The translations under genes were made by a program, and so were the position numbers. 64,000 bases of DNA from an uncultured Acidobacteriaceae bacterium (GTDB taxonomy: Bacteria; Acidobacteriota; Terriglobia; Terriglobales; Acidobacteriaceae): assembly GCA_963761405.1 (NCBI GenBank), contig CAVXHH010000010.1, positions 39,215-103,214 of the forward strand, written 5' to 3'. Shown piece by piece: positions 2,225-62,380 of this stretch (its first letter is position 1; each line of letters opens with the position of its first letter). The notes under the pieces were generated by a model, which did not search any database, was not told the DNA's origin, and saw only the letters and a list, made by a program, of their open reading frames with translations.

Positions 2225-5200
2225 ATGCCTAAGTTCGCTCTCAAGTATCCGTTCTTCATCATCATGATTTGTATGGTGATCATGGTGGTCGGCGTCACTA
2301 CCATTGCCGGTATGCCGGTGGACCTGTTTCCGAAAATCGATATTCCGGTGGTGGTGGTCGCGACCTTCTATTCCGGCATGCCCCCCCAGCAAATCGAAGC
2401 CGATATCACCGACACCTTCGAGCGCTTCTTCACCCTGGGCAGCAACATCGACCACATCGAGTCGCGATCGCTGACCGGCGTCAGCCTGATCAAGATCTAC
2501 TTCAAGCCGGGTACGGATGCCAATGCAGCCTTGAGCAATATCGCCAACCTGGCTCATGGCCGATCTGCGCCGATTACCCCCTGGCACCCTGCCTCCCGTC
2601 GTGCTCGGTATGGATGCATCGAGCCAGCCGGTGTGCCTGGTGACCTTGAAAGGGCAGGGGCTGAACGAGACCGAACTCAAGGATCTGGCCCAGTTCCAGG
2701 TGCGCAACCAGATTGCCAATGTGCCCGGCGCCTCTGTGCCCCAGCCCTATGGCGGACGCTACCGCCAGATCATGGTCTACGTCGATCCGCTCAAGCTGGA
2801 GGCGCACAACCTGAGCTTGATGGACGTGGTCCGTGCCGTGAATCAATCGAACCTCATCTTGCCCGCCGGCGATGTTCGCATCGGTCCCAAGGACTACAAC
2901 ATCTACGCCAATAGCCAGGTCACCACACCAGAGCTCATCAACGACCTCCCCCTGAAGTCGGTCGGCAATGCCTCCGTCATGGTAGGCGATATCGGCAAGG
3001 CGGAGGACTCGGGAACGCTTCAGACCAACATTGTGCGCATCGATGGCCAGCGTTCGGTCTATGTCCCAATCCTGAAGCAGGGCGGCGACAGCAACACCAT
3101 CACCATCGTCAACGGCATGAAGGCGGCGATCAAGAACCTGGTCGACATACCCGCGTCGCTCAAAACCGCCGTCGTCTTCGACCAGTCCATATTCGTCAAA
3201 TCCGCCATCAAGAACCTCATGAACGAGGGTGGCATCGGCCTGGTTCTTACCGCCTTGATGATCCTGTTGTTCCTGGGCAGCGTACGCGCTACCTTCGCGG
3301 TTCTCTTATCCATTCCCCTCTCCGCGCTCGCAGCCTTTATTTGCATCAGCGCCGGAGGCGGCTCTATCAACACCATGGTCCTGGCGGGGTTAGCGCTGGC
3401 CTTTTCCCGCTTGATCGATAACTCGGTCGTGGTGCTCGAAAACATCTTCCGCCACCTGGAGATGGGAGCCACGCCCGCGGTTGCGGCCGAGGTCGGTGGC
3501 AATGAGGTTCAATTGGCCGTGCTCGCTGCCACCTTCACGACCGCGATCGTGTTCTTTCCCGTTGCCCTCCTCTACGGAGTGAGCCGGTATCTCTTTACCG
3601 CCCTGGCACTGACTGTTGTCTTCGCCCTCTTTGCTTCCTATGCCGTAGCCATGACCGTAGTGCCGCTCTATTGCGCCCGGTTTATCAAGTCCGCTGACGT
3701 GGAACATGAACAAGTTGTGCAAACGGATGGCGCGGCCCTTCTGGCTCCAGCGCCAAACCAATCCTTCTTCCAAAGAATCGTTGCCAGTTTCAATCGCTGG
3801 TTCCAGAGAATGCTTGAACGGTACGTCGTAGTGGTGAATCGCTCCATATTGCGACCAGTCGCCACCGCCTTCGGCATCCTCGGCGTTGTCCTTCTCAGCT
3901 TTGCCTTATTTCCTTTGCTCGGCCGATCCTACTTTCCCCGCACTGACCCCGGTCAATTTGTCATTAATATCCACTGCCCCAGTGGAACCCGCATCGAGCT
4001 CAGCAACAATTACGTTGCCCAGGTGGAACAGGAGATTCGCGATGTGGTGCGTCCCCACGATCTGGATATGATCGTCTCCAATATCGGAATTACTCCCGAT
4101 CTCTCCGCCATCTATACCAGCAATTCGTCCATGGATACCGCGTTCGTGCAGGTGAGCCTGAAGCCGGGACACGAGATCGGAAGCTACGAATACATGGCCC
4201 GCGTGCGCAAAAAGCTCGCGAATGACATGCCTCAGTTGAGCACCTACTTCCAGGCCGGAGGATTGGTCGATTCCGTCATCAACCAGGGACTGCCGGCGCC
4301 GATCGATATTCAGGTAAGCGGCAACGACATGGATCAGTCGTTTGCCATTGCCAGCCGCATCGCCGCCCAGGTCAAGCAGCTCAAGGATGTCGGCGATGTG
4401 CTGATTCCTCAGAACCTGCGTTATCCCGGTGTGGCCCTCGACATAGATCGCGAACGAGCCAGCCTGATCGGGTTATCGCCCAAGGAGATCGTAGACAACG
4501 TCATTACCGCGCTCACTTCGAACGGCAGTGGTCGCGCCCAGTTACTGGATCGACCCCCGGACCGGGAATAACTACATGCTCACCGTGCAGTACTTCGACC
4601 AGAAGATCGCCCACATGAGCATGGACGACTTCAAGCAGATTCCCCTGCGGGCCGATGCCCAGGCTTCGTACACTCCCTTGCAATCGGTCGCGGCCATTAA
4701 GGAAATCAATACCCCTACGGAAGTGGATCACTATCAGATCCGGCGTGTGATTGACGTCTATGTGATGCCATCGACAGAAGCGCTGCAACACGTGAACCGC
4801 GAGGTCAACCAGATCATTGCCGGCGTCGAAAAGCCCAAGAACATCCGCGTCACGGTCCGCGGAAGCGTGATCAGCATGAATGAATCGTTCTTCCGCTTTG
4901 GCATTGGTCTGGTGCTCGCGATCGTGCTCGTATATCTCATCCTCATGGCTCAGTTCGCCTCCTTCGTCGATCCGTTCATCATCTTGATGGCCATTCCCCC
5001 TGGGCTCACTGGAGTGCTCATCATCCTGCTGCTCACCGGCAGCACCCTGAACGTGATGTCGCTGATGGGGGTGATCATGATGACTGGCATTGTGGTGTCG
5101 AACAGCATCCTCATCGTGGAGTTCGCCGGCCAACTTCATCAACAGGGCTTGAGCATCTCGGATGCGGTCGTGCAATCCTGCAAGATTCGCTTGCGTCCGA

Positions 5201-31299: not shown

Positions 31300-31521
31300 G
31301 ACGAATTTCTCAGGCAGGGCACTGCTGCCTCGCCGCAGCGAGCGTTAGCCGCGCCGCAATGCGTCGAAAATATTTTGGGCTTTACAGGCTGCGGAAAAAG
31401 GCGTCTTCAGGGTAGGCCGGGGATTTATCCCCGGCATTAACGTCGCCATCCTTGTGGCCTTTAGGCCCTGAGGTACGGTTTTTCGCGGGATTGCAGTCGA
31501 AAAGCATACCTCAGGGCCTAA
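31300..31521. repeat. REP-like mosaic repeat cluster 1
   Basis: Contains GGGCTTTACAGGCTGCGGAAAAA (31377-31399), the hairpin GCCGGGGA-TTTA-TCCCCGGC, and a 15-bp perfect inverted repeat TTAGGCCCTGAGGTA / TACCTCAGGGCCTAA (about 31460-31521). Confidence 0.7.
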
Positions 31522-46960: not shown

Positions 46961-47416
46961 TCAACGCCAATAGAAAGCATTGCGGAAGAGTTCAATCCCC
47001 GCAGGTCCCTCATTTTCGTAGATCGCTAACACGTCGAAGCGGACTTGCTGCGGTACAACGGGTAGGGCCAGAAGATATTGGCGTGCCAAGCGTCGCAGCA
47101 CGCGGGTCTTGTCCGCGTCCACCGCCGATTCTGCTGTAAATACACTCCGGTAGGTGCGGGTTTTCACTTCAATGAAGCAGAGAGTATTCTCTTCCCACCC
47201 GATCAGATCAAGGTCGCCACGGGCTTTTGCGCTGCGCCAGTCGCGCGCCACGATTGTGTAGCCGCGGCGGCGCAAATAGAAATACGCAGTATCTTCGCCG
47301 CGCCTCCCCAGTTCCAGGTGGGCTGGCCGTCGGGGGCGTCTCTGCAGGCGGCCAGCAAGAGCGTCGCTAGCGTGAACAAACCCTTCGAGCAGCCGTAGCG
47401 TAAACATGGGCTCCAT
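46961..47416 (-). CDS. YraN-family (UPF0102) endonuclease-like protein
   Basis: GEDTAYFYLRRRGYTIVARDW...GDLDLIG...LCFIEVKTR core. ATG 47416 lies within the long ORF 46961..47863. Confidence 0.8.
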   Translation of the reverse strand: MEPMFTLRLLEGFVHASDALAGRLQRRPRRPAHLELGRRGEDTAYFYLRRRGYTIVARDWRSAKARGDLDLIGWEENTLCFIEVKTRTYRSVFTAESAVDADKTRVLRRLARQYLLALPVVPQQVRFDVLAIYENEGPAGIELFRNAFYWR

Positions 47417-47633
47417 TGTCTCCGGAATAGGCCGGATTGCCAACACGAATGAAAATCCTTTAGATCCGTCGTCCGACGGCTTCGCCGACCCGTGAGAGAT
47501 GAATCGGGAGATTTGTCTGTTGTTACGAAGCCCGACTTCAGGTTGCGGAAAAACTCGACGAGATGAGAGGTTCGGAGCAGATGGAAAAGGAGCAGTCCCG
47601 AAGGGACGGCTGAAAGTCAGACCTGTGCAGATT

Positions 47634-48400
47634 GTGCGCTGAGCAGCGCGTTGTTCAGGAGGGTTGAAGTCCCTCTGGTTCTCAGATGAGGAGGGCCATA
47701 TCCGAAAGCGGGGGTAATGCCTCGCTGGCCGCAGAGGCGAGATGGTTCTGCGGAGGGCAGGGTGTCCATTGTGAGATGGAATCCGAAGGGCATGAGGAGA
47801 AGTACCGGGCCGTAATCGAGGGGGCAGCCCCGACGATGAACCGGTCGGCCAAAGGTGGGGCAAGGTCGAGCCTGCAATTTGGAGGCGAAGGCGTTCTCAT
47901 TCACCCACCGCACCAAGGTGTTTGCGGACGGCACGGTACGGAAGAACAGCGCGTGACCTCAGGAGGACTGACAGTGTTTCCGGTTGGCATCGGAGTAAGC
48001 GGACCTATAAGCGAGAGCGAAATGGCGAGCGATGCGCTGTCAGTAGTCGGACGGCTGAAAAGTACCAGAAGCGTGGTGAAAGCCATGTGACCGGGCAACC
48101 GGCGACAGAAATGGATCGGGGAAGTCAGCCGACGAAGATGCTGGGAAGAGAGAGGAAGACCAATGAGTAAGGGCGCGGAGGAGGATCAGTTCCTTAAGTG
48201 ATATACCCGTACGCTTCGCCCGAGGAAACTGTTGGACGGATCGACCCAACGGGGGCAAGCGAAGGACCATTCCTTTCTTCTCCTGCTTCCCGGAAGAGTG
48301 AGCCTTCGTGAAAGCCGTGTGCGGGAAAACCGCATGCACGGTTTGAGCGGCGGACGGTGGCTAGCATCTGGGCAACCCGATGCGCCACCTCCGACCCGAC
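47634..48400 (+). mobile_element. group II intron ribozyme without an intron-encoded protein (ORF-less, 767 nt)
   Basis: 5' GUGCG (47634-47638). Domain-I element GGGUGUCCAUUGUGAGAUGGAAUCCGAAGG (47760-47789). Near-consensus domain V AAGCCGUGUGCGGGAAAACCGCAUGCACGGUUU (48312-48344). Domain VI hairpin 48349-48396 with bulged A 48394, and 3' end ...CCGAC at 48400. The domain IV position holds only a 12-codon ORF (48163-48201). Confidence 0.75.
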
Positions 48401-48404
48401 AGCT

Positions 48405-48900
48405 CTTCTGAAGAAGTTTGCTGGCCGTGTTTTTGGGTGGAAGCCCCCTGCTTTAGCAGGGGGGCAACGCTTTAGCGTTGCCGGAAGAAATCCGACCTCT
48501 CTATCCTGCGCTTTAGCGCTGGGCTTGTATCAGGGCACGACTGCCTCGCCGCAGCGAGCGTCAGCCGTGCCGCAAGATCGAAAAAATGATCTGGGCTTTA
48601 CAGGCTGCGGAAAAACTCCTGTTTTGTATCAGGGCACGACTGCCTCGCCGCAGCGATCGTTAGTCGTGCCGTAAATAATTGAGAATACGTTGGGCTTTAG
48701 CCCCTGCTGGATCCTCTTGACCTCAACGTCCTGGGCTATTTTCAGCCGTCCCTGCGGGACTCGCCCCATTTCCTAAAATGTAGAATTTCTCGGCCGTCGT
48801 AAGCTGTTGATTGTAAACCCACAATGGGCTTTTCCCGCTTTTCTCGCTTTTTTCGCATACCTCGCTTACCTCTCTTTTCTCGCACATAGGCCTATTTTTT
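48405..48900. repeat. REP-like mosaic repeat cluster 2
   Basis: Three GC-TTTA-GC hairpins (48444-48463, 48464-48481, 48508-48519). Two TGTATCAGGGCACG...CGTGCC units (about 48526-48572 and 48625-48671). GGGCTTTACAGGCTGCGGAAAAA at 48593-48615. TTTTCAGCCGTCCCTGCGGGAC at 48739-48760. TTTTCTCGC-type direct repeats at about 48833-48895. Confidence 0.75.
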
Positions 48901-49006: not shown

Positions 49007-50008
49007 CTAGTAGTGCCGGTACCAGCTCTCCACTATCCGAGCGTATGCATCCCCATCCCAGTCCATAGGCTGGAATCGTGGCAGCACAAAGCGGTTGGAA
49101 GTCCGGGTAACAAGGCCGCCAAAGTTGGAGCAGGCGCACTCGAATCCATTCGCCCGCACCGTGTCGACTGTATGTCGGGTGTAGTGGTTCTTCTTGCCAA
49201 AGGGATAGGCGAAGCTGGTGATCGTCTTGCCGGTGAGTGCTTCCAGCCGCCCCTTGCTGCCCCCAATTTCATGCTGTTGCTGGTCGGACGGCAGCAGTGC
49301 CAGGACGGGATGGGTAAGGGTATGGGCGCCAATCTCCACCAGGTCTCCAGAAGCTAGCTCGCGCAACTCATTCTCGGTGAGGCACCGATGTTGCCGGCGA
49401 TCCCCATATGTCGCACCTCTACGCAGCTGTTCGAGTGCCTGCTCCCGCTCCGCGTCCGATAGTGTCACCAGCATTCCATAAAGTGTCAGGTATGCCGCTT
49501 GGCGGGGTCCCGGGGCGTCTTCCCATGCTCTCCAGCTTCTATCCGGATCCACACCCGGCGACTCGGCGGATTGCGGCGGAAAGGCATAGGCGTAGTCGTA
49601 GCCCTTCAAATTCAGACTTAACTCCTGTTGGCGCGTCGCCGGGTCGAGGATGAGCTTCGCCAGCTCATCCCACCAGAGGTTGTCAGGAACATTCAGATAT
49701 CCAGGGGTAACAAAGACGGTAGCCGGCACACCCGACGACTCCAGTGCAGGCTTAGCGGCGTGTAAGTTATCCGCGTAGCCATCGTCAAAAGTGATGCAGA
49801 CGGGCCGGGATGGAAGATCTTTGTCCGATCTTGCCCTGGCCAGCTCTTTGAGCGATACCGGATTGGCGATCGTCTTCAGAACCTGCAAATGCTGGGCAAA
49901 ATGCTCTGGGCTCACCCCGAGTGCCCATGGGTCCACGTTCGCCTCAGCCACGCGATGGTAGACGAGGATCATGGCCTTCTTGTGAAAGACGGTGCGGGCC
50001 CGATGCAT
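49007..50008 (-). CDS. polysaccharide deacetylase (NodB-homology, CE4) family protein
   Basis: ILVYHRV...ITFDDGYADN...THP motifs. ATG 50008 chosen, because the longer ORF overlaps the upstream GT2 gene. Confidence 0.8.
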   Translation of the reverse strand: MHRARTVFHKKAMILVYHRVAEANVDPWALGVSPEHFAQHLQVLKTIANPVSLKELARARSDKDLPSRPVCITFDDGYADNLHAAKPALESSGVPATVFVTPGYLNVPDNLWWDELAKLILDPATRQQELSLNLKGYDYAYAFPPQSAESPGVDPDRSWRAWEDAPGPRQAAYLTLYGMLVTLSDAEREQALEQLRRGATYGDRRQHRCLTENELRELASGDLVEIGAHTLTHPVLALLPSDQQQHEIGGSKGRLEALTGKTITSFAYPFGKKNHYTRHTVDTVRANGFECACSNFGGLVTRTSNRFVLPRFQPMDWDGDAYARIVESWYRHY

Positions 50009-50070
50009 GCGCCGTGCCGCCTTCTTCAGCGTGTTTCGGAACGGAATGTTCTGGGGAACGTTGATTTGTA

Positions 50071-51015
50071 CTACCTCCGGACCTGCTGGACTTGCCCTGG
50101 GGATGCCGGCGCTGCATTCCGCTGTACGAAAGCCGGCAGAACGCGCAGCAGAAGCAGCAATAATCCCTGAGGATAACGATAGGCAAGGATTTGGAGCTTC
50201 CGGCGAAGATGATCCGGACGTATCGCCGCATGCGATCTCGCCACCTCCGACGCAAGTTGCCGCCCGTACTGTCTTCGCCAGGATCTGATCCCATCGCAGA
50301 ATGCGAGCAGGCGGTGGACATCGTAGCGAACATACCTCGCCTGCCTGCGCAATACCTGCAGGGTGGTGGTCAACATCAACTCTGAGTTGCGCGACGTGTT
50401 TGTTCCGTGCATCCGGTACTCGGCGACGATCACGGCGTGGCAACAGATCGGCCGCACGCGTGCAATGCGCAGGTAAAGATCGTAATCTTCAGCCACACGA
50501 AGCGCGGTATCGAATCCTCCCACCTCATCGAAAATGCTTCTGCGGAACAATACAGAAGAAATCATTTCGATGAAATTGCTCTTCAGCAGCGCCTCATAGT
50601 GCCGGCGGGGTTCACACGCCTTATCGGAGTTTCCTAAGTGGGAACCGTCGGCCGCGATAAACACGTGATCTCCTACCGTGATGGCGCAATCCGGGTGCGC
50701 TGCGAGCGCATGCAGTCCAGACTCGATCGCTTCCGGCCGCAGGCGGTCATCCGCGTCCAGAAAGACAACGTAACTCCCCTTACTCTCCCGAATACCCGCA
50801 TTGCGTGCTACCGACAGGCCGAGGTTCTGCTGCCGTATGTAGCGGACGGGAAGCCGTTGAGCAATCTCCGGGCTGCTATCCGTGGATCCGTCATCGATCA
50901 CAACAACTTCTACTGCCCCATAGCTCTGCGCCAGGGCGCTCCTTAGTGCTTCTTCAAGAAACACCGCCCCGTTATAGCAGGGAACAATCACTGTTACCAA
51001 GGGGACGTTATTCAT
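50071..51015 (-). CDS. glycosyltransferase family 2 protein
   Basis: VIVPCYNGAVFLEEALRSALAQSY...VIDDGSTD...FLDADD (GT-A fold, DxD). Confidence 0.85.
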   Translation of the reverse strand: MNNVPLVTVIVPCYNGAVFLEEALRSALAQSYGAVEVVVIDDGSTDSSPEIAQRLPVRYIRQQNLGLSVARNAGIRESKGSYVVFLDADDRLRPEAIESGLHALAAHPDCAITVGDHVFIAADGSHLGNSDKACEPRRHYEALLKSNFIEMISSVLFRRSIFDEVGGFDTALRVAEDYDLYLRIARVRPICCHAVIVAEYRMHGTNTSRNSELMLTTTLQVLRRQARYVRYDVHRLLAFCDGIRSWRRQYGRQLASEVARSHAAIRPDHLRRKLQILAYRYPQGLLLLLLRVLPAFVQRNAAPASPGQVQQVRR

Positions 51016-51039: not shown

Positions 51040-51345
51040 TTTGTATCAGTGTCTGGATTGGGGCCCGGCTTGCGTCGCCGCAGCGAGCGTTAGTCGGGCC
51101 GTAAGTGTCTTGAAAACATCTTGGGCTTTACAGGCTGCGGAAAAACTCCGTTTTGTATCAGGGCACGGCTTCAGTCGTGCCGCAAAAAGCCGCAAATGAC
51201 AAGGGCTTTAGCCCCTGAGGGCAATTTTCGAATCGAAAGAGAACCGTACCTCAGCGGCTTAAGCCATAAGGCGCACAAGATATTTGCGGCACGGCTGAAG
51301 CCGTGCCCTACCTGAGAAGTTTGTCTTTCCATCTGCTCGAACGCT
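51040..51345. repeat. REP-like mosaic repeat cluster 3
   Basis: GGGCTTTACAGGCTGCGGAAAAA (51123-51145), TGTATCAGGGCACGGCTTCAGTCGTGCCG (51154-51182), GGGCTTTAGCCCC (about 51211), and GGCACGGCTGAAGCCGTGCC (about 51287-51306). Confidence 0.75.
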
Positions 51346-51912
51346 TTAGTCTGTCGAGTTTTTCCGTAGCCTGTTAAGCCCCCGCGGCCCTCCCGAATCA
51401 GCCGTTACAGTTCTCTGGGAGCTCGAATGAATCGTATATCGACTACCCTCCGGGATAGGCTGTGCGGCAATAAAATGGCGCTGGCCTTTGTTGACTGCGG
51501 AGATACATCTGCACTGTTCTGCGTCGTCTTGATTACTTTCAGCTATGCGGAGAGCGCACAGCCTTTGCGTTAGCCGCCCGCAATCCAGCTCCGGCTGTTC
51601 TAGATTCGTACACGCCTCTGGCGATGTCCACCCAAGCGGCGCCGTCAATCGCGAAGGCAGGTGGCCCGTTGCGGCCAGGACCCCGCCATAGTCTTAGCCA
51701 CGAGAAAACCAGGGCTCCAGATCTCCGGGAAGAAACAAACTCCCGTTTCATCCCTCGTGGGTCGGCATAGGGAAAAAGGAGTCGTCCCAGAGGGGCGGCT
51801 GAAAGTAGCCAGGATGAAATCCTGGGCAACCACGGCACGTCAGTGCCGTGGGTTGCCCAGTAGGAAGCGGCAAAAATTGTGAACCCGCTCTAAACTATTC
51901 ACAGTAACCGAC

Positions 51913-61489: not shown

Positions 61490-62380
61490 GCGGTTTTTGT
61501 ATCAGGACACGACGGCCTCGCCGCCGCGAGCGTTTCCGGCCCTCGGATGCGGAAGCGCGGCGCTGCCCGGCTCTAAAGATGTTACTAAAGACACCTCTTG
61601 CACCCGCCCCAAATCCGTACTACCGTGAAATTAGGAAGTTGTACGTCAGCGCCGTCTCACCACGTCCCTGCTTGGCCTTGCACCGATCGCTCGCCCGTGC
61701 ATCCGCCCCCAGTCTCCGGGAACGCATCAGCCTCTGCAGGCAGGATGCCCCGGTGTTTCGCAAACAGTAGTGTGACCTTCGAAGTGACAGATACGTCTGT
61801 CCGCGGCATTCCGCGCCCGCCCCACGCCCCGAATGGGCGCCTGCGGAGAGCGGAAATCACCGTGCGAGCAGGGTACGCTCAGTGCGTCCTCTTGATGGAG
61901 CAGTTTTGACAACTTGGAACACTCTCACGCCGGCGCCGGTGTTCTCCCTGTCGTCGGCTGTCAGAAAAGTCGTTCGCGCCGGGCCGCCGAACGGCTCCGG
62001 CAAGCTCGACCGCGATCGGCTCCTTGCGCAAGCGATCGCGGCCCTGGGTGTTTTCATTTGCAAATCTTGAGCACCTTGCCCCATCCCACTTGAGCACCTT
62101 GCCCGCTTTTCGCTCTTTTGGGTTTTTTTCGATCCTCAGCGCATTTTGCTTTGTATCAGGGCACAACTTTACAAGCTGCGGAAAAGCCCGGTTGAGTCCC
62201 GGGAGGGGGGGCTTAGTGCGTTAGTGCGTACTTTTTAGCCATTTCCCGTCGGCAGAGCCAGACTGTTCCAGCCCACTCGTGGTGTCCGCCCCACAGCTCC
62301 AAGCTAATTTGGACAGCTCTGATTTTCAGCCGTCCCTTCGGGACTGGATTGGGGAACCGTACGCCTCGACTCCGAAAATG
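61490..62380. repeat. REP-like mosaic repeat cluster 4 (with unique spacers)
   Basis: TGTATCAGGACACG... (61498). Direct repeat CTTGAGCACCTTGCCC x2 (62066-62081, 62089-62104). TGTATCAGGGCAC plus CTTTACAAGCTGCGGAAAAG (about 62152-62190). TTAGTGCG x2. TTTTCAGCCGTCCCTTCGGGAC (62323-62344). Confidence 0.65.

Follow-up and report, generated by a model that had tools for sequence, protein, structure and literature searches.

This locus raises the question of how a group II intron that encodes no protein of its own came to lie between two bacterial genes, and whether it has been served in trans by a protein encoded elsewhere. The locus is part of a 64,000-nt stretch of DNA from an uncultured Acidobacteriaceae bacterium, here called the window. 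An inspection of the letters and open reading frames without database searches (the sequence-only reading) had proposed a structurally complete intron at 47634–48400 on the plus strand. We found that this segment is a genuine, structurally complete six-domain group II intron of 767 nt without a reverse transcriptase (RT)/maturase. When the whole window was scanned, the only Rfam family with a match at or above its gathering score was RF00029 (group II intron domains V/VI), at 48310–48400 (43.6 bits, gathering score 40, E 2.9e-5). The covariance models thus recognized domains V and VI but not the upstream domains, because none of the families group-II-D1D4-1 to -7 had a match in the window even at E<=10. 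Consequently, the case for domains I–IV rests on homology and covariation and not on Rfam. One relative of the intron showed a D1D4-3 match below threshold (29 bits versus 32).

Both ends of the intron can be placed with single-base precision: in about 45 relatives, homology begins exactly at GUGCG (47634), where the 5′ end had been read from the letters, and breaks exactly after ...CCGAC (48400), the proposed 3′ end. The position of the 3′ end is confirmed by an uninterrupted paralogous target at 62303–62346, which aligns across the joined exons. The termini are of the 5′ GUGYG / 3′ AY type (GUGCG at 47634 and ...GAC at 48400), and the 767 nt fold better than shuffled sequence (z = -5.9). A consensus fold was calculated for the window copy together with 18 full-length relatives, from which the ORF had been removed before alignment. 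The features of the intron are as follows.

47634 to 48400, plus strand: complete ORF-less group II intron, 767 nt (homology boundaries, empty site, RF00029 match, six-domain consensus fold)
47634 to 47962, plus strand: domain I, with 5′ GUGCG (consensus fold and covariation)
47963 to 48048, plus strand: domain II (consensus fold and covariation)
48049 to 48131, plus strand: J2/3 and domain III (consensus fold and covariation)
48132 to 48311, plus strand: domain IV remnant (alignments with full-length relatives; same junction in a second ORF-less copy, L166)
48312 to 48344, plus strand: domain V, with the AGC triad at 48313–48315, the bulge U48335 G48336 and the loop GAAAA (RF00029 and covariation; 100% identical in L166)
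48349 to 48396, plus strand: domain VI, with the putative branch-point A48394 (RF00029, homology end, consensus fold)

In the fold alignment, 98.5% of the cells are standard pairs, and 28 pairs show a compensatory change; compensatory changes were seen in five pairs of domain V and three pairs of domain VI. In a tool-made alignment of domains I–III (22 sequences), 18 pairs had changed on both sides, compared with 5.3 ± 1.7 in shuffled controls (0 of 500 reached 18) and 2–6 in slid controls. The expected six-domain fold was therefore obtained, with covariation well above the controls. The hallmarks that had been read directly from the letters can be placed within this fold. The domain I segment at 47760–47789, which had been likened to the corresponding region of the Oceanobacillus intron, is present; across the family alignment (columns 199–233) it folds into a hairpin that hardly varies. 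Domain V has the 33 nt, the AGC triad and the 2-nt bulge that had been described, but its GAAAA loop is a pentaloop and not a strict GNRA tetraloop. Domain VI contains 17 consensus pairs, and A48394 is unpaired with six nt after it, as had been proposed. Together with the covariance-model match, the base-exact boundaries and the empty site, this fold bears out the earlier identification of a structurally complete ORF-less intron.

The full-length relatives of the intron encode a protein. A D5-pattern scan of species-representative genomes gave, among the matches listed, three Terriglobales/Acidobacteriaceae MAG loci (L088, L103 and L105) with 85–91% identity to intron nt 1–642 and 80–96% identity to nt 641/666–767. 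Between the two matching parts, these loci contain about 1.2 kb of extra DNA coding for a protein of 431–435 aa with Pfam RVT_1 (E ~1e-40) and GIIM domains and a TIGR04416 score of 385 bits. No endonuclease domain was present in this protein, the IEP, in the three loci, and its best solved-structure matches are IIC RTs (6ar1, E 3e-63; 7uim). The 25-mer at 48040–48064, in J2/3 and domain III, was found as an exact match in 43 metagenome copies, on 43 contigs from soil and peat. Full-length members of the family measure 1.95–2.03 kb. They are like the window copy in their ribozyme domains (85–91% identical), their 5′ and 3′ ends and the GAAAA loop of D5, and differ from it in carrying their own IEP of 431–435 aa, in having the EBS1 sequence ACUAUG, and in usually lying within or beside domain IV of host introns.

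This last property follows from the surroundings of the relatives. Full-length copies lie 90–260 nt downstream of matches to Rfam D1D4-3, -4 or -6, and an outer D5/D6 lies 135–190 nt downstream of the inner introns of L103, L148 and L150, which places the relatives, as nested introns, within or beside domain IV of other group II introns. In the twintrons of L103 (5935–3352, minus strand), L148 (1049–3630) and L150 (1–2504), the outer intron belongs to the Rfam D1D4-6 type and lacks an ORF, so the protein of the inner intron may serve both. Nesting at three levels was observed in L147 (10858–13773) and L126, where a D1D4-3 host intron holds a family intron that is itself interrupted in domain I (nt 183/187) by a 2-kb insert with a D1D4-4 match. 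A location of the window copy within a degraded host intron was considered and rejected, since no D1D4 match or second D5/D6 match lies nearby and the flank is a repeat with an empty paralog.

Fragments of the family and more distant relatives also occur on plasmids of Cupriavidus, Paraburkholderia, Bradyrhizobium, Microvirga and Alicyclobacillus. The blast search of plasmids returned only 5′ fragments (nt 1–642) and distant relatives, and no complete ORF-less copy. The 5′ fragments of nt 1–642, found on Cupriavidus sp. P-10 plasmid pMTS2 (L164, 43128–43848) and on other plasmids, show 85–86% identity, and those on betaproteobacterial plasmids adjoin an ISL3 transposase and a recombinase. The plasmid fragments indicate horizontal spread of the intron family beyond Acidobacteriota.

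Comparison with the relatives reveals what the window copy has lost. An RT-maturase of 431–435 aa is encoded in domain IV of every relative that spans this domain (29 of 29), with an insert of at least 1 kb in each, and the window copy is short of about 1.19 kb of it. A Shine-Dalgarno-like GGAGGAGGA at 48177–48185, which precedes the IEP start codon in the relatives, is still present. The true IEP start aligns with 48194–48196, which in the window reads TTA and is dead. It is followed by a recognizable N-terminal IEP stub of about 26 codons (48194–48272) with three frameshifting indels. Homology to the IEP is lost near 48272 and picked up again at 48285–48311, where the last nine codons and their TGA stop lie just before domain V; the deletion junction lies at about 48272/48273 (junction sequence CCATTCCTTTCTTCT). 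As judged from these alignments, the RT gene has been lost from a member of the IEP-encoding family via one internal deletion. The miniature reading frame at 48163–48201, which had been described as the only content of domain IV, does exist, but it is not an IEP remnant, because it lies 5′ of the true start and its ATG is GTG in the relatives. Pfam detected no domain in the 134-aa internal ORF, and tblastn with the IEP of a relative detected no RT encoded anywhere in the 64-kb window, in agreement with the claim that the intron lacks one. A member of the family with a partly deleted frame was also observed: in L137 (intron of 1789 nt), about 160 nt are deleted inside the IEP ORF, and this copy is intermediate and degenerate.

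A second ORF-less copy was found on a different metagenome contig, ena:ERZ25039604:contig_39515 (L166), at 1570–806. It was found by a protein search with a spurious antisense ORF that spans the deletion junction, in which match P0007 had the window-specific part of the ORF. The L166 copy can be aligned over the full 767 nt (90% identity), encodes no IEP, and has the identical deletion breakpoint, the same frameshifts and indels and the same altered EBS1 as the window copy. Apart from the intron and short repeats, the two contigs have no sequence or genes in common. A second protein search with an antisense ORF gave one partial match and no further ORF-less copy, and a junction scan of viral contigs gave no match. 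The ORF-less copies found therefore number only two, one of which (L166) looks degenerate.

The sequences around the insertion point show how these copies are matched to their targets. The elements involved, including the repeat next to the target, are the following.

47594 to 47617, minus strand: Acido-Lenti-1-like repeat, linker and 3′ hairpin with the stem GUCCC/GGGAC at 47595–47607 (RF01687 partial, 17 bits)
47615 to 47633, plus strand: 5′ exon target module AGTCAGACCTGTGCAGATT, with IBS1 CAGAUU at 47628–47633 (homologous to the L166 5′ exon and two empty sites)
47876 to 47881, plus strand: EBS1 AAUUUG (95% complementarity to exon positions -1 to -6 over 28 copies)
48401 to 48402, plus strand: first bases of the 3′ exon, AG, with the A at +1 conserved in all copies (homology end, copies compared)
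62303 to 62346, minus strand: empty paralogous target, consisting of a repeat hairpin and TCAGAGCTGTCCAAATT/AGCT (the slash marks the insertion point here and below), with IBS1 CAAAUU (aligns across the joined exons)

In the window, EBS1 AAUUUG pairs with IBS1 CAGAUU at six of six positions, one of them a G-U pair. Full-length relatives have the EBS1 sequence ACUAUG, or a one-base variant of it, paired with IBS1 CAUAGU, and their 5′ exon motif is AGAAGTC[AG]G...CATAGT/A. The ORF-less lineage has EBS1 AAUUUG with IBS1 CA(G/A)AUU and the target module TCAGA..TGT.CA.ATT/AG (target sequence TCAGASYTGTSCARATT/AG). The underlying EBS1 changes, 47877 C>A and 47879 A>U, were found only in the window copy and L166, and both match the new IBS1. 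The 5′ exon of L166, TCAGACTTGTCCAAATT/AG, is a perfect match to EBS1. Empty target modules are present in both contigs. The one in L166 is at 343–359, about 450 nt from the intron copy; the one in the window at 62303–62346 reads ...GGCTGAAAATCAGAGCTGTCCAAATT/AGCTTGG on the reverse strand, and its IBS1 CAAAUU matches the intron EBS1 perfectly, yet this site is unoccupied, 14 kb away. A search for EBS2/IBS2 detected no loop that covaries with exon positions -7 to -20, and the best candidates reached 83–89% complementarity without convincing covariation. The presence of the same deletion at unrelated loci, with EBS1 and IBS1 matched in each, suggests that the intron moved after its ORF had been lost.

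The intron occupies the plus strand of a 1.6-kb spacer between yraN/UPF0102 (about 46961–47412) and a polysaccharide deacetylase gene (49007–50443), both on the minus strand, so that its earlier placement outside any gene was correct. No sigma-70-like promoter was detected upstream of the intron on the plus strand. The Acido-Lenti-1-like repeat at 47594–47617 forms an inverted repeat with 48740–48761, and on the minus strand its hairpin and the T-run after it resemble an intrinsic terminator. Copies of the repeat in the window lie at 47594–47617 (minus), 48722–48761 (plus), 51784–51801 (minus) and 62313–62346 (plus). Their core, CAGCCGTCCCNNNGGGAC, has five matches in the window versus 0.2 expected. 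The window copies remain below the RF01687 gathering score of 37 bits (30 and 17 bits); in L088 (56 and 48 bits) and L166 (53 and 43 bits), copies adjacent to the introns exceed it. In L088, four Acido-Lenti-1 copies in alternating orientation occupy 4122–4326, about 90 nt past the 3′ end of the host intron.

Several other repeats were observed in the same intergenic regions. A second dispersed repeat of about 50 nt, TTGTATCAGGGCACGACTGCC...CAGCCGTGCC, has a hairpin and is similar to a REP or MITE element; its copies are given in the next line.

48525 to 48575, 48624 to 48674, 51122 to 51167, 31315 to 31399, 61495 to 61534 and 62150 to 62185: repeat of about 50 nt, TTGTATCAGGGCACGACTGCC...CAGCCGTGCC

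The spacer 3′ of the intron (48440–48520 and 48828–48883) also contains successive short hairpins whose loops read CTTTAG (e.g., CCCCCTGCTTTAGCAGGGGGG and CAACGCTTTAGCGTTG) and a 9-nt tandem repeat, GCTTTTCTC, in at least four copies. In addition, one strand of the Acido-Lenti-1-like linker and hairpin, TTTTCAGCCGTCC (48739–48751 and 47604–47615), is the exact reverse complement of 13 nt of the intron, GGACGGCTGAAAA, which form the J2/3–domain III strand at 48049–48061. This complementarity could be due to chance (E ~0.3 within the window) or to a shared origin.

The position of the hairpin bears on the class of the intron. Group IIC introns (Oceanobacillus iheyensis, GsI-IIC) likewise have an IEP without an endonuclease domain and a hairpin upstream of the insertion site, and the IEP of the present family finds its best structure matches among IIC RTs. 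However, the end of the hairpin is separated from IBS1 by 20 nt here (and from the intron by 26 nt), and it is on the opposite strand that the hairpin reads as a terminator. Furthermore, IBS1 has the full 6 bp, and the domain I of 329 nt and the core of 587 nt (domain IV excluded) are larger than those of IIC ribozymes. Hairpin distance and strand, the 6-bp IBS1 and the size of the ribozyme speak against an assignment to group IIC.

To describe the pattern of change since the deletion, we scored derived changes in both ORF-less copies against 18 full-length relatives. Ten changes are common to the two copies: two in EBS1, one at an unpaired position of domain VI and seven in domain IV. Twelve are found in the window copy only, two in domain I, both of which keep the pair, and ten in domain IV. 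The L166 copy has 32 of its own; 23 of these lie outside domain IV, where eight break pairs, and some fall on otherwise invariant J2/3–domain III positions. The private changes of the window copy therefore amount to two, both pair-preserving, in the 587-nt core, against about ten in the 180 nt of domain IV, although those at 48141–48154 (domain IVa) may partly be an alignment artefact. The same comparison carried out without L166 gave five changes in the 587-nt core and 17 in the 180 nt of domain IV (Fisher p = 9e-8).

The identity between the two ORF-less copies is uneven along the intron. It reaches 100% in domains V–VI and 97.5% in the 3′ half of domain I, but only 77% in domain II and 83% in domain III; domains II and III of the window copy are instead 95–98% identical to those of L103. 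This mosaic pattern indicates that recombination among family members has occurred. Gene conversion by full-length copies could account for the intact core without any selection for function. Thus, the window copy appears to be either still constrained or refreshed by gene conversion, and by either route related copies are, or were, present in the same genome.

We consider it likely, with reservations, that the window holds a non-autonomous group II intron that was mobilized in trans, having passed through a deletion, a retargeting of EBS1 and insertion by reverse splicing in dependence on a protein supplied in trans. In such a course of events, a member of an intron family that is common in Terriglobales (Acidobacteriota) would have lost about 1.19 kb of the domain IV reading frame in a single deletion. 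The ORF-less descendant would have kept all ribozyme domains, and its EBS1 would have changed from ACUAUG to AAUUUG. It would then have reverse spliced into the module TCAGA..TGT.CA.ATT/AG beside Acido-Lenti-1-like hairpins, at no fewer than two separate loci. Because the ORF-less intron has no protein of its own, its splicing and its past mobility would have needed a trans-acting protein from a full-length relative. We infer the insertion by reverse splicing after ORF loss, the dependence on a trans-acting protein and any present-day activity from sequence comparison. The second copy with the same deletion at another locus makes it probable that the ORF-less intron spreads with a helper protein. 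The sequence-only reading had left a choice between service in trans and a disabled relic; of the two, the evidence favors the former, given the second same-deletion copy, the retargeted EBS1 and the intact ribozyme beside a decaying domain IV. On the other hand, the perfect target at 62303–62346, which is empty, and the decay of the L166 copy speak against vigorous activity at present. A more far-reaching version, in which the ORF-less lineage is an active non-autonomous retroelement specialized, via its altered EBS1, on the multi-copy module linked to Acido-Lenti-1, is a possibility that we put forward only tentatively.

A different outcome of the same deletion would be a stranded relic, in which the intron, whether it arrived without its ORF or lost it in place, is now immobile, unspliced and without a helper, and looks intact because it is young or has been subject to gene conversion. 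The absence of an RT from the window, the lack of a plus-strand promoter, the antisense orientation of the intron relative to its neighbors, the vacancy of a perfect target nearby and the visible decay of the sister copy L166 are all consistent with such a relic, and the mosaic pattern fits gene conversion. It is less easily reconciled with the contrast between the domain IV remnant, which has accumulated numerous changes, three frameshifts and the loss of the start codon among them, and the 587-nt core, which has acquired two changes that preserve pairs. The same deletion at two unrelated loci, with EBS1 and IBS1 matched in each, implies movement after ORF loss, and gene conversion itself needs related copies in the same genome. 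Taken together, we regard a stranded relic as unlikely.

Much less probable, in our estimate, is a protein-independent self-splicing intron like C.te.I1 of Clostridium tetani that needs no maturase in vivo. The ribozyme is complete and well conserved, as such an intron would require, and one independent ORF-less bacterial intron is documented (PMC4424553). Nevertheless, the window intron derives recently from a protein-encoding family, and it has kept domain IVa and the Shine-Dalgarno region, which is a protein-binding site in other introns. Two insertions after ORF loss would need a reverse transcriptase, and since no gene is interrupted, nothing selects for splicing alone. Finally, although no Rfam D1–D4 family matches, the notion that the segment is no intron at all but belongs to some larger conserved non-coding RNA, or is a set of motifs assembled by chance, can be dismissed in view of the 85–91% identity, end to end, with elements that carry an RT-maturase in domain IV, the exact homology boundaries, the empty site and covariation far above the controls.

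The preferred reading, mobilization in trans, has precedents. ORF-less bacterial group II introns that rely on the proteins of related introns are rare but documented (PMC4424553, PMC2882425), and related introns, whose proteins may serve them in trans, are almost invariably found alongside them (PMC4424553). The closest parallel is TeI3 of Thermosynechococcus elongatus, which combines one deletion in domain IV that left ORF remnants, a diverged EBS and twintrons with trans-mobilization demonstrated by experiment (Mohr et al. 2010, PMC2882425). The window intron is like TeI3 in having one domain IV deletion that leaves N- and C-terminal ORF remnants and a disrupted frame, in having copies at different sites with identical breakpoints, and in an EBS that has diverged to new targets and pairs well with the flanking exons. 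In both cases the parent family makes twintrons by insertion into domain IV of other introns. The two differ in their hosts (Cyanobacteria versus Acidobacteriota), in the number of copies (17 versus 2) and in the protein, because the TeI4h IEP has D and En domains and the IEP family described here lacks an endonuclease domain. Moreover, the target of the window intron is a module beside a dispersed repeat, and mobilization by the protein of a related intron, demonstrated for TeI3, is inferred here. On this comparison, the window intron matches the TeI3 precedent and would add to the documented ORF-less introns without constituting a new kind of system.

Two other systems show a more limited resemblance. 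As with the nested ORF-less and RT-encoding introns of Methanosarcina acetivorans (Dai & Zimmerly 2003, summarized in PMC4424553), the present family homes into group II introns, some outer introns (L103, L148 and L150) are ORF-less, and the flanking exons are non-coding. The window copy differs from the M. acetivorans introns in that it is not nested but lies in a repeat module, and its host is bacterial. C.te.I1 is also a bacterial group II intron without an IEP, but it has no related IEP in its genome, lies in a coding context and undergoes alternative splicing (PMC4424553), whereas the window intron is intergenic and a recent derivative of an IEP-encoding family.

In the present case the lineage is acidobacterial, its parent family can be traced, its deletion is defined and its EBS1 has been retargeted, and targets are known in both the occupied and the empty state. 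Because the parent family, the deletion, EBS1 and the target sites are all in hand, it is directly testable. ORF-less elements of this kind serve as a model of how introns could become dependent on shared trans-acting splicing machinery. The case also connects intron homing sites with Acido-Lenti-1, an orphan repeat motif of Rfam; this motif has been reported to occur sometimes near group II introns (PMC2864571 supplement). If the ORF-less lineage is indeed active and specialized on the Acido-Lenti-1-linked module, it would represent the second natural bacterial system of trans-mobilized ORF-less group II introns, after that of Thermosynechococcus, and would provide a mechanistic reason for the unexplained proximity of Acido-Lenti-1 to group II introns.
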